Shown here one piece after another: positions 11,283-18,999 of a DNA stretch of 64,000 nt. This DNA comes from Chloropicon primus (lineage: Eukaryota): positions 806,001-870,000 of the forward strand of contig CP060758.1 of NCBI GenBank assembly GCA_023205875.1, given 5' to 3'. How positions within the stretch are numbered: position 1 is the stretch's first letter; each line of letters begins with the position of its first letter. A program made the translations under genes and the position numbers. Under the pieces are notes generated by a model. It was not told where the DNA came from, ran no database searches, and saw only the letters and a list, made by a program, of their open reading frames with translations.

Positions 11283-12647
11283 TTACTTTCTGCTCTTCCT
11301 GCTTTTGACGTACCTCAGACCCATCTCCGCCCGGTTCTCGTTCTCGTGGGTGTCGTCGTCATCCAGGTTCTTCGCAGACCGCTTCCTTCCCTTCCTCGAG
11401 TCCGTCTCTCTCATCTGCATTGACGCCAGCCTCGAGGCCTCGCTCACCCTCTCCTGAAGAACCAAGACCGCTTCCTCTTGCGACTCGAAGTTCTCCATCT
11501 TCTTTCCTATCAGGTGCTCGATCTTTTGGAACATCTCCACGTCGTACTGGGTGACGAGGGTGAGAGACCTCCCAGACCTCCCGGCCCTTGCCGTTCTGCC
11601 GACGCGGTGCACGTAATCCTTGGGATTCAAGGGGACATCAAAGTTGATGACCATGTCGACCGAGGGAATGTCCAAGCCTCGGCTTGCCACATCCGTCGCC
11701 ACCAGAATGTTTCTGTCACCCGACTTGAACTTGTTCAACGAACCAATTCTCTTCGACTGACTCATGTTACCGTGGATCGGTATGGAGGCAAAGCCCAAGT
11801 TCCTCAGCAAGAGCGCGTTCCTGCGAGCGCCGTCGCAAGTTCTGGTGAAGATGACAGCCGTGGATCCCGAGAGCTCCGTCAGGGCGTAGACCAGGTAGCA
11901 CTCCTTGAACTTGGCGGGTATGAAGAGGTACTGCTGCCTTAGCGTGTCCACGGTGCTGTACTTGCTGCAGATCTCCACCCTCACCGGGTTTTTCAGGCAA
12001 GCTCTCTGCAGCTTCTGCACTTTGCTCGTCATCGTCGCCGAGAACAGCTGCGTCCTGCGGTCCCTCGGTATCACCTTGAGGATCTGGTCGATCTCCTGCT
12101 CGAAGTCCATGTTCAAAAGCCGGTCGGCCTCGTCCAACACCAAGTGCTTCAACTTGTTCAGGTTAAAGCCCTTTGTGTTCGAAAGGTGGTCCACGACCCT
12201 TCCCGGCGTGCCCACAATGACGTGCGGCCTCCGGCCCAATGCGATGGACTGGGCCATCATGTCCACCCCTCCGACGAGAACCACGGACTTCAAGCCTATC
12301 GTAACCCCCAGGGCCTCGAACTGCTCCGCGATTTGGATGGCGAGCTCTCTCGTGGGGGACAGAACGAGGGCGAAGAAGGGCTGGGGCTTGTCGAGGAGCT
12401 CTTGGAGTATGGGTAGCGCGAAAGCGCCCGTCTTCCCGCTTCCAGTCTGAGCCAGACCAATCACGTCCTTGCCGTCTATCAACTGAGGAACTGCTTGGCG
12501 TTGGATGTCCGTAGGAGCCTTCCAGCCCAGGGCGAGGCACCCCTCGGCCAAGGCGTCCACGAGGCCGAGGTCCGTGAACGCCTTCTTAGCGTCCCCTTCC
12601 CCCGTCCCGGCCTGCCCGTTCGTCTCCTTCCGTTGCTCGGCACTCAT
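11283..12647 (-). CDS. RRP3: DEAD-box RNA helicase RRP3/DDX47 (RH10)
   Basis: [40 protein letters not shown]. Confidence 0.93.
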
Positions 12648-12760: not shown

Positions 12761-12774
12761 AATTACGATTACAT
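12761..12774 (+). repeat. Left copy of 14-bp target-site duplication AATTACGATTACAT
   Basis: Identical to 16282-16295. Confidence 0.9.
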
Positions 12775-12784
12775 AGTACATCAG

Positions 12785-13315
12785 ATTAGCAAATGAATCC
12801 TCGTGTGATCGCTGGTGAGAGCGATCACACTCATGACGCTACCCGCAGGGCTTCACCAGGGCTTCGCCCTAGCTTCGGCCTGCGCTGCGTCTACGTTGCT
12901 TCTCATCATTTGATTACACGATACCATCACGCAAAAGTTACCCCGGAGGGTTACTCCCATCAGGTACCTTCGATTGTATTCTATGCGGCCCTCCACCAGC
13001 GAATCGAAACGCCTTTTTGAATGGAAGGTGACACTTCCATCCAATGTAGAGAGCCATCCGGACTACTCTCACTCCGAAGGGGAAGGAGCTGCCCCGAGTG
13101 TAAAACACTTTCATGCAGGCGTGTCGGAGCTCACCCCGGCGGTGGCGAGGCTTGGTTGGTTGGCTGTTTCAGAATCAAGAGTCTTGAAACATGTAGGCAC
13201 GCAAGGCTACTCCTTTCATCGTCCACAACCAATCACCCCGCCGATACCAGGGACTGTCGAGCTCGCACGCTCTTTGAGTCTTCGAGCTGTGGCCTCGACT
13301 ATGGGGGCGCGTTCA
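12785..13315. ncRNA. Putative large structured RNA at the 5' end of the Fanzor element (family unknown, strand uncertain)
   Basis: Consecutive stems: CAAATGA/TCATTTG, GTGTGATCGC/GCGATCACAC, GACGC..CGCAGG/CCTGCG..GCGTC, TTCGATT/AATCGAA, ATGGAAG/CTTCCAT, GAGAG/CTCTC, CACTC/GAGTG, GTTTCA/TGAAAC, GTCGAG/CTCGAC; no credible ORF. Confidence 0.5.
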
Positions 13316-13449
13316 CTTAAAAAAGAAACACAAGGAAACAAAAAACGAGAACGCAAGCCCCTCTCAGTCTCGACTAATCAAGCGCAGCTTCTTCATCATG
13401 GCTGGGCACACCATGGTGATGGGCACACGGCGTCGCCAAGGGAAGTGCT

Positions 13450-13509
13450 GGTCGCTCGGGCAGGCCGGTCGCTCGGGCAGGCCGGTCGCTCGGGCAAGCG
13501 ACCGGCCTG
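13450..13509. repeat. 17-bp tandem repeat (GGTCGCTCGGGCAGGCC x~2.8) ending in a perfect 13-bp hairpin
   Basis: Units at 13450, 13467, 13484; CAGGCCGGTCGCT (13478-13490) pairs with AGCGACCGGCCTG (13497-13509). Confidence 0.9.
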
Positions 13510-13580
13510 GTGCGACGACGGACGTTCACAACTGAGGGTGAGGGTCGTGGTCTCCGATGACACTTTCAAAATTTCCACGA

Positions 13581-13638
13581 CCACAGCCACAACCACAGCC
13601 ACAGCCACAGCCACAGCCACAGCCACAGCCACAGCCAC
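13581..13638. repeat. (CCACAG)n microsatellite upstream of Fanzor
   Basis: Visible hexamer run with one variant unit. Confidence 0.9.
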
Positions 13639-13729
13639 AACATCAAAAAAAGAGAGGAGAGGAGAGGAGAGGAGAGAGGGGGGGAGGGAGGGGGGCTGGG
13701 CACTTCCACATTAACTCTACTTCGACACC

Positions 13730-15796
13730 ATGACCTCCGACGGCCCTTCGACCTCACGTCCTACTGCCAAGCGTCTACGTGGTTCGCGTTCTCCTCGCCG
13801 ATCCCATTCAAAGAGGAGGAAGGGGAAGAAGGAGAAGGAGAAGGAGAAGAAGGGGAAGAAGAAAAAAATTTTTAGGGCGTATAAGATCGGTCTCCATTCA
13901 GCTCTCCAGCCCAGGTTGCGGGACAGCCTTGGGGTCGAATTGGAGGATGCCTCAAGAAGAATGGGGGTGATAAACCATCTCGGGACGGTGTTGATGGCCC
14001 TCCACCATGCTCGTCGGCTTGGGGAACTGCCCGGGGCTTCTGCTGATCTCGAAACCTTTCACCGTCGGTGCGGAGAGATGGTGACTGAGCTCAATCAACT
14101 CAGGGCTGAGCGGGAGGGGGGGCCGGTGGCGGACATCCAACTCCTCAAGAGGGTTTGGAGGTGTGTTCCAGCGATGGATCGGGTTTCGATAGGTCACTAC
14201 CTCCGCACCGTCTCCCACACGCCCAATTCGAGGGAACCAACGTCACAGGAACCAACGTCACAGGAGTGGAGATTGCTCCAGGCATCCATGGCGGCGTTGG
14301 TTCAGGCCGCCACAGCTGCCGAGACCTCTCTGCGTCTGCGTCTGCCATCGCGGGCGCTCCTGTCGCATGTCATCACGGAAGCTGCACTAGTTCTCAGGAC
14401 GAATTGGTCAAACTTCCTCAAGTACGGGACCTTCAATCACATGAAGCAATACCTGAGAGCAAAGTACCAACTGAACAAATCCGAGGCTGCCGCTCTCCGA
14501 GCAGCCCTTTTGAGCGAGTCGCAGCCCCGGAGACCCGACCTCGTCCAACACTACCACAACGAGCTGGCCCTCGTTCAGGGCTTTGGCGTTGCAGACTTTA
14601 TGCACGGCACCGACAACGTTCTCGACCCCGCGGAGCAAGAGAGAAACATGGTCGTGTTCAGGTATATGATGCTCAAAACGGTAGAGGCCTCGGACCTTCC
14701 GATCAAGCGTTTCACTCTGGTGCCTGTCTGCCGGGTGCAGTATCCAATGATCAATGTCTCGCGATCTTGCCTGAAACTCTGGGGCTATGATGGTGGCCGT
14801 GGGTGGGAGAAGATTTTCACCAAGAAGGTGAACAACATCGCCAAGAAGGGCCACACGAATGGACGTACCAAGGCATTCGCTAGGCACTTTCGAACCGATG
14901 GCCTCAGCGTCGTGGTCGTTGTCGAAGAGGTGATCCTCGCTCGTCCCGACAACAACTATATAGGCCAAGGGGAGCGGTGTGCCACCAAGCCTTCTCAGTT
15001 CGATCCCCGGAACACCGTGGGCGTTGATCCCGGCCGAATTTTTGTCGTCTACGCGAACATTCTGGAGAGGGGGAGGAAGAGGACCTTTTCTCTTCACCTC
15101 TCCGCTTACCGCGACCGCTGTGGTTTCACGAAGAGGAATATTTTGGCACACCAGTGGCTGAGCAGAGCCCCCAACAATCTCCAACAGAGATTGAACGACC
15201 GCGCCATTTCTCTGAAGCTCACAAGTGTAGATCGCCTCCAGGCGGCGATTGGGACCCGGCTCACCTTCCTCTCCAACGCCATCGATTTTTTGGGGCAACG
15301 GCGCTGGCGTCGAAAAGGGTTGGAGACTTTTGGGCGAAAGCAGCGAACTATGGAGTTCATAGCAAGCAAACTCTTCCCGACGGCGTCACACATCGTCTTC
15401 TACGGAGCCGCAAACTTCCCCTCTGGCATCAGGGGACGCCCTCCCGGGCCTTGCATCGGGCTCAAAAGGTTTTTGGTGACGAAGACCACACCAGGGAGAT
15501 TCTTCTTCGTCGATGAATACAACACCTCCAAGATGTGCGCAGCATGCTCTCAGAAGAACATCTCCACTGCGCTGCGGAGAGTGCACAAGAGTGATAGAAG
15601 CCGAGGAAACGGACCACCATCAAAGAAGGGACGTCCCCAGTACGGAGTTTTGTCCTGCCCCAAATGCAGTATGGAAGTGCCCCGCGACGATAACGGCTCG
15701 GACAACATCCTCGCCATCGCCAGTGCTTTCCTCCATGCACAAAATTGGTCTGTCCCACGCGAGATTTGGCCGCCAGCGCTGCGACGCCCTCTGTAG
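13730..15796 (+). CDS. Fanzor1 (eukaryotic TnpB-like RNA-guided DNA endonuclease), 688 aa, intronless
   Basis: RuvC-I VGVDPG (D433), RuvC-II VDEYNTSK (E596) adjacent to CAAC, CPKC zinc finger, RuvC-III RDDNGSDNI (D653); Fanzor1-type FTLVP, RTDGLSV and VFYGAANF segments; basic NLS-like N-terminus. Confidence 0.9.
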   Translation: MTSDGPSTSRPTAKRLRGSRSPRRSHSKRRKGKKEKEKEKKGKKKKIFRAYKIGLHSALQPRLRDSLGVELEDASRRMGVINHLGTVLMALHHARRLGELPGASADLETFHRRCGEMVTELNQLRAEREGGPVADIQLLKRVWRCVPAMDRVSIGHYLRTVSHTPNSREPTSQEPTSQEWRLLQASMAALVQAATAAETSLRLRLPSRALLSHVITEAALVLRTNWSNFLKYGTFNHMKQYLRAKYQLNKSEAAALRAALLSESQPRRPDLVQHYHNELALVQGFGVADFMHGTDNVLDPAEQERNMVVFRYMMLKTVEASDLPIKRFTLVPVCRVQYPMINVSRSCLKLWGYDGGRGWEKIFTKKVNNIAKKGHTNGRTKAFARHFRTDGLSVVVVVEEVILARPDNNYIGQGERCATKPSQFDPRNTVGVDPGRIFVVYANILERGRKRTFSLHLSAYRDRCGFTKRNILAHQWLSRAPNNLQQRLNDRAISLKLTSVDRLQAAIGTRLTFLSNAIDFLGQRRWRRKGLETFGRKQRTMEFIASKLFPTASHIVFYGAANFPSGIRGRPPGPCIGLKRFLVTKTTPGRFFFVDEYNTSKMCAACSQKNISTALRRVHKSDRSRGNGPPSKKGRPQYGVLSCPKCSMEVPRDDNGSDNILAIASAFLHAQNWSVPREIWPPALRRPL

Positions 15797-15880
15797 CGGC
15801 AAGGGCTATGGATCCAGGTTGAAACCAAGCAGGACACTGGATAAGATCTTTCTTGAGATCGAGGAGGACGTGGGAGGCCC
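15786..15880 (+). ncRNA. Putative Fanzor omegaRNA: scaffold ~15786-15860, guide from ~15861
   Basis: Stems GCCCT/AGGGC, ATCCAG/CTGGAT enclosing GGT-TGAA-ACC, and GATCT/AGATC directly 3' of the ORF, where Fanzor/TnpB omegaRNAs lie; host-gene homology starts right after the last stem. Confidence 0.6.
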
Positions 15881-16261
15881 AAGCACAGGACGTCGGGGCA
15901 TTCCAAACGAGTCCGGACAGCACCACGAGCTCATCCATCGGACCGGCAGGGCTATCCTCGTAGTTCGCGTAGTAGAAGCCTCCCAGTGTGTACCCGTTCA
16001 ACTCCACCAGAGGCATCTCCTGCACGACGACGGCAAGCGCGTCCCATCCCATCCCATCATCCAAGCGTCCGTACACAGAGTGAGAGAGTGCGTGCGTGTG
16101 CGTGCGTGTGTGTGTGTGGGGGGGGGAGTCAGTTCAGTTCAGTCCATGGTGAGTGCGACAGGAAGGTTTGCTTGTTGGGAACTTACCGGAGGGACGTATT
16201 GGCGAGCGACAGAGGACTTGACGAGGTGGAACTGATAGTGCGCGGACCCCCTGAACGTCCA
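15861..16261 (-). pseudogene. Fragment of NEOXANTHIN-DEFICIENT 1-like gene, truncated at both ends, intron 16020-16186 retained
   Basis: Spliced translation WTFRGSAHYQFHLVKSSVARQYVPPEMPLVELNGYTLGGFYYANYEDSPAGPMDELVVLSGLVWNAPTSCAWASHVL matches the NXD1 N-terminal half; in-frame stop and no ATG upstream; C-terminal half not found in the window. Confidence 0.8.
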
Positions 16262-16281
16262 ACAACCCTCCCGGGAACGTC

Positions 16282-16295
16282 AATTACGATTACAT
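16282..16295 (+). repeat. Right copy of 14-bp target-site duplication; contains the TGTAA poly(A) signal (minus strand) of the Rab3GAP gene
   Basis: AATTACGATTACAT identical to 12761-12774; abuts the TAA stop at 16295-16297. Confidence 0.9.
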
Positions 16296-18811
16296 TAGAC
16301 GGTTACAATGGAAGCGAAACGTGTCATGCTCTGGTCGAGGTCTTGGGAGAGGTAGGTGTACAACAAGGGCAAGTCCTCGGGGCCTTGGGCCTCGCCGGCG
16401 GAGGTGAACAGTTGGACCACCTGCTTGCGGAGGTGAAGGAGCATCACGCTGTCAGAGCTTTCTTCCTGCCTTCGGAAGCTTTCGCCGAAACTGAAGGAGG
16501 AGTGAAAGGGGTCCGAGAGGCTCAGCTCCAGGGTCGGGCCGTTGGAGAACTCCTTTGTGACCAGTTTGTTGACGAAGGCGTCGACAAGGAAGGCCTTGAC
16601 GTCCCCCGAAAGGAAGACCAGCTTCTGGACCACGCTCTCGGCGAAGGATATGGAGACTTCCAGCAGGTGGAGGTCGAGGCAGAGGATCGTGGCCTCCTCG
16701 TCCTTCGCGAGGTCTGAAGTCGCCAGCTTCTTCGGCAACTTCGCCACCCAGTCTTGGACGCTCTCTTTGACGCTCGAGACGAGATCTGCGATAGGCTTCA
16801 GCTCCAGGTTCCTGCTCGCTCTGAGGGTGTTCACACAATTGGACAAGCCCAGGCAGTAGAGCGACTTGAACAACTCGAGGGGGGCCACGTGCTCGAGCCA
16901 GTCCAGGGCCATCTCGGCTCTGCTGCAGAGAACGCTTTCTGCCAACCCCCCCTCGGAGTGGTCCTCTTCCTCTTGGGCGCTCGCCAAGTCATTCCACACG
17001 TCTTTCAGCCTGTCCTTGGTGAAATTGTTCCACGCAAGAGATTTGCAGAGCTTTGAGAACTCGTCGAAATACCTCGAGGACCGAAAGTGCTTCTTGAAGT
17101 CACCAAAGGACACCCCGTCCTTGGCCCTCCTGAAGGACCTTGCCATCTTCCTCGCCGCAACCCCGTGCATCTTGATCCAGACCTCTTTCTTGTTCTTCTT
17201 GTTCGAGGTCGTGGTGAACATGTAGTCATACTCACCGACGAGGTCCGAGGTGAGCATGCTCGGGTTCGAATCACCCGAGTCATTTCCCACCAAGTCGTTC
17301 GCGCTCAGGGTGCCGCCGCTCCTCAGCCCCAGAATGCAGAGCTGGATCAGCTGCACCTTCTGCTCGATGACTTGGCACGAATGGTCGATGCCCGCAAAGC
17401 CAACCATTCTCGGCAGGAGCTCCCGCTCCTCCCAGTACCCGAGCCTAATCCCCGAAATAAACCGCTTCCACAGCAAGGAGATCGCCCTTGGGTTGTCGCC
17501 ATAAGACAGGGCGTACATGGACAGGTACCCCACGAGGTTGTCCACGGGGAGGCTGTGGAGGTCGTTCTCGAGCCCCCCGAAGTTCTGCGTGACGTGAGCC
17601 CTCCGGTTGAAGATGGACTCGACCTGAGTCTCCAAAAGATTCTTCGAGGGTATCTGAGGGACCTGCGAGTATTGGTCCCAAAATGAATCCTGGGACAACT
17701 GGCTGACCCCCTTGGCCCTCTCGACCAGCTGAAAGGTGGAGTGAAAGGCGGACACCATTTGAGCAAAAAAGTAGCCACCGCTTGACTTCTTCATGGTATC
17801 CATCACATTCCTGTGCCACATGACGTCCGAGAGCACTTCGTCTTTGAGCTCGAGCTTCAAGCAGGCCTCGCCCACCGCGTCAAGGGCACTCAGAGACGAG
17901 AGCTCAAAACTCTTCACGGACTGGGAAGATCCGCTGGACCCACCCGCGCGTTGGAATGAATCGAGATCGGTCTGCACATCAGAGCAGCGGAGGTTGTCCC
18001 ACGATATTCCCAGCCTTATCCCGGCGATTGGATCTTCGTATTCTGCCCAAGGGTACCAGGGGCAAGCAGCGTTCCAGTCGTCAATCCAGATGCACATGTC
18101 GGACTCTGACTCCGGGAGGGTCCAAGTGAGTTCGAACTCTCTCGTCACACTCGCGCTCGTGCTCGCGGCCTGCCCTGCCCCCCCCGCGGCGGCGGCTCCC
18201 CGCCCCCTCTCCACGACCGATCCCGCCCTGGACTCGGAGTGGTAGCCTTCCACGACCGACAGCGGAGGCATCTCAGCTGCCTTGAGTCTTCCCGTGATAC
18301 AGTCCGTTTGCAACCGCGCCACGTGGCCCCCTGGCCTCAGGTGCACGCCTTCGAAGGACCTCCTCTGCCTGTCTCTCATCGGTATGAGCAGCGGGTGGGG
18401 GAACTTCAAGCTCGTCGCGGACGTGGACAGAGCCGACAAGAGCGCCACGCCCTCCTCCTTATCGAGAACGCAGCCCGAAAACGAGTTCGGGTAAAGCAGC
18501 ACGAAGGGCTCCCCCTCCCCCAAGGCAAGCCACTTGGACAGGTAGTGGTCCATGGGAGGGTAGTGCAAGGCCACGCTGTACTTCTCCGGCCGGAACTGCG
18601 GCAGCTTCGCTTCCAGGACCCACACATGAACCTGGTCCCCCTCGTTGTTTTCGATGACTTGGCTCGGCGATGCTGCAGCGGGAAAGTCTCTCAAACCTTC
18701 TCCGTCCTCCTGGGCCTTCTTCCATTCGCGAAGCTTGGCCTCCACCTCCGCACAGAACGCCTCCCACGCCGTCGCGGTCGTGTAGTCCAGGAACCCGTCC
18801 TCATCCTCCAT
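16295..18811 (-). CDS. RAB3GAP1: Rab3 GTPase-activating protein catalytic subunit-like
   Basis: N-terminal DYTTATAWEAFCAEVE, NPRAISLLWKRFI..WE and IDHSCQVIEQKVQLIQLCI segments. Confidence 0.7.
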   Translation of the reverse strand: MEDEDGFLDYTTATAWEAFCAEVEAKLREWKKAQEDGEGLRDFPAAASPSQVIENNEGDQVHVWVLEAKLPQFRPEKYSVALHYPPMDHYLSKWLALGEGEPFVLLYPNSFSGCVLDKEEGVALLSALSTSATSLKFPHPLLIPMRDRQRRSFEGVHLRPGGHVARLQTDCITGRLKAAEMPPLSVVEGYHSESRAGSVVERGRGAAAAGGAGQAASTSASVTREFELTWTLPESESDMCIWIDDWNAACPWYPWAEYEDPIAGIRLGISWDNLRCSDVQTDLDSFQRAGGSSGSSQSVKSFELSSLSALDAVGEACLKLELKDEVLSDVMWHRNVMDTMKKSSGGYFFAQMVSAFHSTFQLVERAKGVSQLSQDSFWDQYSQVPQIPSKNLLETQVESIFNRRAHVTQNFGGLENDLHSLPVDNLVGYLSMYALSYGDNPRAISLLWKRFISGIRLGYWEERELLPRMVGFAGIDHSCQVIEQKVQLIQLCILGLRSGGTLSANDLVGNDSGDSNPSMLTSDLVGEYDYMFTTTSNKKNKKEVWIKMHGVAARKMARSFRRAKDGVSFGDFKKHFRSSRYFDEFSKLCKSLAWNNFTKDRLKDVWNDLASAQEEEDHSEGGLAESVLCSRAEMALDWLEHVAPLELFKSLYCLGLSNCVNTLRASRNLELKPIADLVSSVKESVQDWVAKLPKKLATSDLAKDEEATILCLDLHLLEVSISFAESVVQKLVFLSGDVKAFLVDAFVNKLVTKEFSNGPTLELSLSDPFHSSFSFGESFRRQEESSDSVMLLHLRKQVVQLFTSAGEAQGPEDLPLLYTYLSQDLDQSMTRFASIVTV

Positions 18812-18999
18812 GATCTCCGAGCCCCCCCAGCTGTCACTTGTGGAGGATACCAGCCCAGCAAAGCACCAGAGAGAGAGAAGAGAGAGAGGGGGGGGTGAAT
18901 CGGTTGGTGGGAGTCCATAAGAAGTATGTCGTTTCATAAAAAATACTTGGAGATAAGGGTGTACTTTTTAGACCCTTACTTGCTGCAGAGCATCACCAG

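Follow-up and report, generated by a model that had tools for sequence, protein, structure and literature searches.

The interval 12761-16295 of the window (the whole 64,000-nucleotide stretch analysed here, from contig CP060758.1 of the marine green alga Chloropicon primus) is a real insertion of about 3.5 kb and one copy of a multi-copy mobile element. Judged from its sequence, the element encodes an intact Fanzor1, a predicted RNA-guided nuclease; it ends on the right in a piece of a host pigment gene, NXD1 (neoxanthin-deficient 1), and lies between two copies of a 14-bp target-site duplication (TSD). For its arrival, we give an even chance to the proposal that this transposase-less element was copied in trans by a rolling-circle HUH (Helitron/Replitron-like) transposase, from a hairpin-bearing left end and with an imprecise stop on the right.

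The 14-mer AATTACGATTACAT occurs exactly at 12761-12774 and 16282-16295, with no third copy in the window at two or fewer mismatches, and position 16295 is the last base of both the right copy and the upstream gene's stop codon. Such a pair is not rare in itself, because 16 of the 127 maximal direct repeats of at least 14 nt and more than 200 nt apart in the window are non-simple; between the two zones beside the Fanzor1 open reading frame (ORF) only, a shared 14-mer appeared in 2 of 1000 dinucleotide shuffles. The stronger point is that the 14-mers, which the first-pass annotation had taken as a TSD, stand within 0-2 nt of both borders as mapped independently of them. On the left, the depth of X1 contigs steps from 158 to more than 1000 at about 12762-12791; on the right, the identity to native NXD1 stops at 16279, 2 nt short of the 14-mer. 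The right junction is spanned by an X1 contig that begins at 16250, 32 nt inside the insert, and at the left junction the X1 flank contig reaches just 17 nt into the insert, ending at 12791. X1 is possibly the window's own sample and so tests the assembly, not ancestry, and contig depth is a rough measure, not copy number. The border features are as follows.

12761-12774, no strand: left copy of the 14-bp TSD, identical to 16282-16295, at the X1 depth step
12772-12802, no strand: left end, shared with at least one other copy; terminus somewhere within 12772-12777, overlapped by the last 3 nt (CAT) of the TSD
16280-16281, no strand: extra 2 nt (TC), in neither native NXD1 nor the TSD; native NXD1 in X6 and X7 differs past 16279
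16282-16295, no strand: right copy of the TSD, identical to the left copy, bridged by the X1 contig 16250-17200

The TGTAA reported within the 14-mer is present on its minus strand; the motif is a poly(A) signal in chlorophytes and may serve as one here. Directly 5' of the left 14-mer stands TTGA, with TTTG one base earlier (for a single TSD of 14 bp). The end of the unique X1 flank contig at 12791, with words of 31 letters, implies either a second sequence that shares the letters from 12762 onward or a variant at 12792; sharing from 12762 would take in 13 of the 14 TSD bases and the left end, which a daughter copy carrying the same TSD would explain. By eye and post hoc, the repeat can also be read as an imperfect 17-mer (12761-12777 and 16282-16298) that ends in AG, the left one being one T short, and this would put the left terminus at 12777 behind an RG dinucleotide, as in Replitron-1.

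The locus without the insert is found in L001, a metagenome contig of a related alga (1 match among 173 candidate stretches), in which the same two neighbour genes stand 111 bp apart with no Fanzor or NXD1 match between them. Without the insert, 126 bp would separate the stop codon of the upstream gene from the ATG of the helicase, the compact spacer that the first-pass annotation had described. Hence the insertion is the derived state, and its arrival cost the locus little or nothing; the spacer is unalignable between L001 and the window, so that the single-copy 14-mer is not directly seen. The two neighbours had been named RRP3 and Rab3GAP, of which the helicase assignment agrees with Pfam and the other name does not find a Pfam family to stand on.

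11283-12647, minus strand: intact host DEAD-box helicase gene (RRP3 in the first-pass annotation), Pfam DEAD and Helicase_C; L001 ortholog 89-94%
16295-18937, minus strand: intact host gene, an ORF (named Rab3GAP, name not confirmed), no Pfam family; L001 ortholog directly upstream of the helicase

The synteny with L001 extends to the next gene, and L001 has introns in both neighbour genes (1844-1987 and 240-416), the window orthologs being intronless.

The empty state was seen in this relative but not within the species. No joint that skips the insert occurs in the contigs of X1, X6, X7 and X8 (4 of the 20 listed runs); in X6-X8 the two junctions are not both covered, so that this is no evidence; none of the listed runs containing the sequence is recorded as RNA. 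The published heterozygous indels (222 rows, first 400 letters of each) are without a motif of the element, and the interval 748,207-815,041 of chromosome 5, where an identical protein is encoded, has no row among them (10 of the 12 chromosome-5 rows, which span the place). Other insertions of 1.5-2.7 kb are heterozygous in that list; homozygous Fanzor1 copies would fit, weakly, homing or mere age.

We regard a chance pair of 14-mers or a misassembled locus as very improbable. The 16 non-simple repeats, the lack of a same-species empty allele in the X1 and X6-X8 contigs and in the indel list, and the mere 17 nt by which the X1 flank contig crosses the left junction would all allow it, but it has to face the pair's distance of 0-2 nt from two independent borders, the right junction bridged from 32 nt inside, the spacer length that fits L001, and a protein variant of this copy that is present on two contigs.

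The element is multi-copy in C. primus. Six annotated accessions form one series (QDZ18706, QDZ20339, QDZ21102, QDZ21418, QDZ24299 and QDZ25362), and three database proteins of the family, on chromosomes 2 and 13, are broken. The X1 depth is 128-158 in the flanks, 1133-1144 in the left arm, then 929, then 804 in the ORF and 547-584 in the NXD1 piece. A variant-copy X1 contig starts, as a loose end, at the CATA equivalent of 12772, which suggests a left end common to copies. On the right, other copies in the X1 and X6 contigs match the window to 15872 and continue into a different flank, and the chromosome-2 copy (P0166) has the same chimeric junction as the window copy with the NXD1 N-terminus and start codon kept. 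The right end thus has at least three extents (another flank past 15872, NXD1 to codon 9, and NXD1 past its ATG), so that the 3.5-kb unit is not a fixed form of the element; a right end that carries variable donor flank is the signature of Replitron-1. Comparing the ends of other copies, a check named by the first-pass annotation, pointed to a shared left end, by one loose contig end, but to no common right end and no second TSD. The variant left end (12772-12779) starts CATATTAC, by likeness near the CATA target-adjacent motif of SpuFz1, and it presumably also resembles the CRESS/Rep nick-site nonamer.

The assignment of the ORF to Fanzor1, made earlier from the letters alone, was borne out by motif, profile and model comparisons of its predicted protein.

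13730-15796, plus strand: Fanzor1 ORF, 688 amino acids from the first ATG, basic N-terminus; intact D-E-D triad, TDG motif and C4 zinc finger

The RuvC triad consists of the D in DPG, a shifted E just before the zinc finger, and RD. Among 95 aligned relatives (P0002 numbering), D317 and E480 are invariant, R536 and D537 are at least 90% conserved, and T273-D274-G275 and C527 are nearly invariant; the TDG motif (Yoon 2023) belongs to the WED domain, and both CxxC pairs of the zinc finger are present (Pfam PF07282). In the profile search, SpuFz1 matched at E 7e-70, SpuFz1, PpFz1 and GtFz1 together spanned 7e-70 to 8e-54, and the mimivirus Fanzor2 followed at 7e-11. The structure model has a predicted local distance difference test score (pLDDT) of 86 and a template modelling (TM) score of 0.69 to SpuFz1, versus 0.25 on the Fanzor2/TnpB side of the comparison. 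A single-sequence search of the PDB with the protein gave no match, and a metagenome scan with it found no relative among 594 stretches. The annotated form has 572 amino acids with a start at 14078, as do the database proteins; ahead of that start, 13730-14077 holds 116 in-frame codons with a K/R-rich stretch that resembles a nuclear localization signal. Set against the majority contigs of X1, the window copy shows 17 substitutions and small indels over 13877-15292 (15 nt and 6 nt extra, 3 nt missing), mostly in the N-terminal half and with the frame kept throughout.

The protein has been catalogued before: Saito 2023 lists a 572-amino-acid FZ1 of C. primus whose visible part is identical to this copy (published work is cited here for the parts of each source that we covered). 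The Fanzor2* element with terminal inverted repeats (TIRs) that Yoon 2023 (PMC10711439 and preprint) describes is likewise from C. primus, non-autonomous, TSD-flanked and without a partner found, but we rejected an identity with it, as it carries a different, Fanzor2 protein (UPR03652, QDZ25014), TIRs and a 5-nt TSD. Five of the present family's accessions are absent from the covered tables of PMC10711439. A list of 25 IS605-like proteins is given in PMC6731263.

Outside the ORF, the order of parts given by the first-pass annotation agrees with ours.

12803-12830, no strand: perfect 11-bp subterminal hairpin, 30 nt inside the left end, z -2.7/-3.1
12831-13729, no strand: non-coding left arm and leader, the deepest part of the element in X1 contigs
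13447-13499, no strand: three 17-bp tandem copies within the leader
13478-13509, no strand: 13-bp hairpin within the leader
13575-13640, no strand: (CCACAG)n within the leader
15797-15857, plus strand: what is likely the omega-RNA scaffold, placed by its position directly 3' of the stop; 3' border at 15857 or 15872

Of the large structured region it had described, only 12775-12924 and, in minus-strand orientation, 12975-13074 are structured (z of about -3 or below); between 12875 and 13424 the remaining 100-nt tiles are mostly ordinary, and the hairpin cluster after the ORF is present but weak. Hairpin strength runs from strong on the left (the 12803-12830 stem; perfect stems of at least 9 bp occur at just 5 places in the window, this one included) through weak at the right of the core (z -0.9 to -2.0) to none at the composite right end, Helitron2 elements of the CRe type having hairpins at both ends. 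On the minus strand, the left hairpin is followed by 13 nt and then by CTAA (12789-12786), a Helitron-like 3' mark, and with A|TC at 15859/15858-57 the core bears Helitron-like marks in that orientation; Helitron1 has TC at its 5' end, a hairpin with CTRR at its 3' end and A|T as its insertion site. An X6 contig covers the putative omega-RNA, with its weak folding signal, and reads on into 157 nt of flank; Rfam gave 3 chance-level matches, none near the gathering score for this region. As first reported, there are no TIRs (the best inverted match is 6 nt, non-terminal and 26 nt inside the left end) and no transposase: Pfam detected no such family in the Fanzor1 ORF or the two host genes beside it, nor in the 29 further ATG ORFs of at least 250 amino acids. 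Nor were terminal direct repeats of the Replitron type (best direct match 5 nt, non-terminal), asymmetric terminal inverted repeats (ATIRs) of the Helitron2 type at the element ends, or a poly(A), A-rich or repeat tail at either junction detected.

The right end of the window copy consists of host DNA.

15858-16279, minus strand: captured 5' part of NXD1, a host pigment gene of the ADC family; no start codon
16279-16187, minus strand: NXD1 exon 1, codon 9 onward, with the same translation as native P0167 from residue 9
16186-16020, minus strand: unspliced 167-nt GT-AG intron of NXD1, skipped in X6 and X7 contigs; the start of exon 2 lies beyond
15858-15872, plus strand: 15-mer common to copies with a different flank, equal to native NXD1 at 13 of 15 positions; candidate guide or terminal hairpin arm

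The annotation puts native NXD1 on chromosome 3, and in L001 the gene is missing from this place; the view that it is native here with the element inserted into it was rejected. The annotation includes a chimeric ORF (15462-16076, minus strand; P0156) that fuses the NXD1 start to antisense Fanzor, and likewise on chromosome 2 (P0166, named NXD1); this is probably not a real protein.

Native NXD1 reads SHV-FV-DKR, with FV in 5 of 5 close homologs, and just before the junction the window copy and the chromosome-2 copy read SHV-LL-D. With the simplest codons, the native gene would differ at 15863 and 15866 and nowhere else in the 15-mer. These native bases are inferred rather than read; in agreement with them, the native pieces of X6 and X7 have two differing letters, and one X1 contig begins at 15867. 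The native match directly follows a native TCTT, its first 5 nt are perfect, and the switch to NXD1 falls between nt 10 and 15. By chance, a 13/15 match is met at a rate of about 7e-6 per site, such sites numbering 2 in 60,200 nt; about 250 would be expected per genome, and about 0.9 with a preceding TCTT. The NXD1 junction was therefore likely homology-directed, though comparable sites are plentiful.

Several readings of the 15-mer would account for this junction. It could be the guide, with Fanzor1 having cut NXD1 at a near-cognate site (13/15) and the break at about nt 15 having joined NXD1 to the element, a reading that we hold to be doubtful; native Fanzor guides are 14-15 nt long and GtFz1 cuts at nt 14-17. 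It may instead be the element's own end: the 15-mer and the bases before it fold into a 9-bp hairpin with the element-type G15863 paired, the 76 nt from the stop to 15872 are in keeping with SpuFz1, and guides normally vary from copy to copy. A further possibility is an initial insertion of the element at an A|T site of NXD1, followed by two mutations of the flank, but both changes lie within the first 15 of 422 nt, for which the chance probability is 0.001, unless there was selection against self-targeting. Plain microhomology may also lie behind the 13/15 junction.

For the insertion itself, the rolling-circle proposal would run as follows. An earlier copy would have been joined to NXD1 via the 13/15 match at the element's right end, and its daughters would have carried different lengths of NXD1, the chromosome-2 copy with the start codon and the window copy to codon 9. 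The target would have been opened by nicks 14 nt apart, fill-in repair producing the duplication, and the repair would have left the 3-nt overlap (CAT) on the left and the 2 extra bases on the right; Fanzor would be a passenger that cuts empty alleles and promotes homing. Imprecise one-ended copying would explain both the carried NXD1 flank and the 14-bp duplication, and copying from the left predicts the left arm to be deeper than the ORF, as in X1 (1133-1144, then 929, then 804). The empty state in L001, the multiple copies, the variable right end, the subterminal 11-bp hairpin and the Helitron-like marks of the minus strand also speak for the proposal.

This signature has precedents in Chlamydomonas. 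CRe-1/2/3, the non-autonomous Fanzor1 Helitron2 elements of Chlamydomonas reinhardtii, have TSDs of 7-19 bp, placed after T-rich 4-mers, and captured extra DNA (Bao & Jurka 2013, PMC3627910), and de novo Replitron-1 insertions have a fixed left end, donor flank on the right and variable TSDs (Craig 2023, PMC10288648). The premise of the first-pass annotation that Helitrons make no TSD therefore fails, and with it the claim of a best candidate for a new system: on present evidence this is not a new class. In common with CRe-1/2/3, the present element has a green algal host, Fanzor1 as the sole gene, no TIR, putative one-ended copying, a TSD within 7-19 bp, extra captured DNA inside the TSDs and perhaps a T-rich 4-mer near the 5' TSD (TTTG, one base off here). 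Unlike them, it has an intronless Fanzor, no ATIRs and no identified autonomous partner, its variable end is the omega-RNA end, opposite to CRe, and the captured DNA is the 5' part of a host gene joined via a 13/15 match. With Replitron-1/Replitron-N1 of C. reinhardtii (PMC10288648), it shares what looks like a fixed left end, the variable donor flank on the right, perhaps the variable-length TSD, a size of about 3.5 kb and a subterminal hairpin; it differs in having no terminal direct repeat and no Rep gene, a hairpin at the left, a far longer carried flank (422 nt) and Fanzor as cargo. Chloropicon is unnamed in the covered parts of the text and 7 supplements of that paper. The MCi-2 Fanzor1 elements of Mucor circinelloides (PMC3627910) are also unclassified and TIR-less with long A/T-rich TSDs (11-12 bp), but their variable side is 5', some have a partial Crypton recombinase, and their TSDs are of one pattern. 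Among the proteins with known structures, SpuFz1, PpFz1 and GtFz1 (PDB 8gkh, 9cf0, 9cer) resemble the C. primus protein in modelled fold, catalytic triad and TDG motif, with a stop-to-end distance of about 75-80 nt in SpuFz1 against 61-76 nt here; the identity is 11-15%, and the C. primus protein is known here from its sequence and a model. The SPu-1 element has TIRs of about 30 nt and a TA TSD, neither of which is found here.

Several points weigh against the rolling-circle proposal. Among the long ORFs of the window there is no autonomous partner, a genome-wide search not having been made, and the ATIRs of Helitron2 and the terminal direct repeats of Replitrons are absent; the element is filed as neither. 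The end conserved in CRe-1/2/3 (PMC3627910) is the 3' end with the Fanzor RNA, which is the variable end here. As for Helitron1, which is to make no TSD, the insert has a 14-bp one, and the shared sequence continues 14 nt past CTAA, leaving no clean terminus; the TIRs and fixed short TSD of DDE cut-and-paste elements are likewise not seen. The TSD is known for one copy alone, the fixed left end comes from one loose contig end and the window copy, and the limits of X1 named above, as to depth and origin, apply to the depth gradient. Finally, both junctions look repair-made, which also fits an insertion templated without any transposase.

In such an insertion, a staggered double-strand break in the A/T-rich spacer, made by Fanzor with another guide or by any source, would have been repaired by copying 3.5 kb from an NXD1-bearing copy, through synthesis-dependent annealing or microhomology-mediated joining; we consider it rather unlikely. 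The 3-nt overlap on the left with 2 untemplated nt on the right, the truncation within NXD1 exon 1 at no recognisable signal, and an older NXD1 junction that itself appears homology-directed would suit it. Random repair copying, however, would not favour a start at a left end common to another copy. A cut by Fanzor at this site, which had been suggested earlier, is unsupported for the one known candidate guide, and we rejected it: the known 15-mer matches the empty site at best at 10/15, a background level reached by 173 of 250 background tiles. The overhangs published for Fanzor1 are about 0-5 nt, not 14.

Retrotransposition in trans, another of the routes named in the first-pass annotation, is disfavoured, and we judge it unlikely. 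A plus-strand read-through transcript (leader, Fanzor, omega-RNA and antisense NXD1) would have been inserted by target-primed reverse transcription through a host LINE (long interspersed nuclear element) or Penelope enzyme. For target-primed reverse transcription, 14 bp is a usual duplication length, and the step from T-rich to A-rich at the left TSD border is presumably a loose likeness of an L1 nick site. In X6, where the NXD1 contig is spliced, one contig continues past the right end for 157 nt of flank. Being antisense to a transcript of this kind, the retained intron does not exclude an RNA, and we rejected intron retention as proof against this route. Neither junction has a poly(A), A-rich or repeat tail, however, and depth, a rough measure, is higher in the 5' arm than in the 3' part, with no 3' over-abundance.

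It seems improbable to us that the element belongs to a class not yet recognised, whose copies Fanzor, aided by host repair or a host polymerase, would bring to sites like the element's ends or guide. In favour of this, the element has the ends of neither Helitron2, Replitron nor TIR elements, the 13/15 NXD1 match switches at nt 10-15, near the GtFz1 cut (14-17), and by eye and post hoc the target is like the variant left end at 10 of 11 nt. On the other side, every feature but the 13/15 match has precedent in Chlamydomonas HUH elements, and near-matches of that quality are common in this genome (2 in 60,200 nt).

What was already known, in the sources covered, is the catalogued Fanzor1 (Saito 2023) and, from Chlamydomonas, the signature of long TSDs and captured DNA. 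What is new is a captured 5' part of NXD1 with its intron kept, joined, by our reading of the letters, at a 13/15 match of the element's last 15 nt; in the open literature, to which the search was confined (subscription papers and Repbase lay outside its scope), we found no description of the element's ends or of the NXD1 capture. Craig 2023 (PMC10288648) proposed, as 'highly tentative', that HUH and Fanzor cutting lie behind the odd TSDs of Chlamydomonas elements, and in vitro the Chlamydomonas Fanzor did not cleave (Jiang 2023). C. primus adds a second alga with the long-TSD signature; its genome measures 17.4 Mb and has about six loci of the family, the Fanzor1 is intact and free of introns, and a single candidate target in the host is defined. 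Should the 15-mer be the guide, the junction would record, as a footprint left in nature, how a eukaryotic transposon captured a host gene under RNA guidance, and every copy of the family would retain a guide that differs at two positions from a live gene of the host. Otherwise, this would be one more Fanzor1 transposon family, new but ordinary, that carries a fragment of a gene. What most deserves a further look is the capture of NXD1, probably joined through homology, at the guide position.

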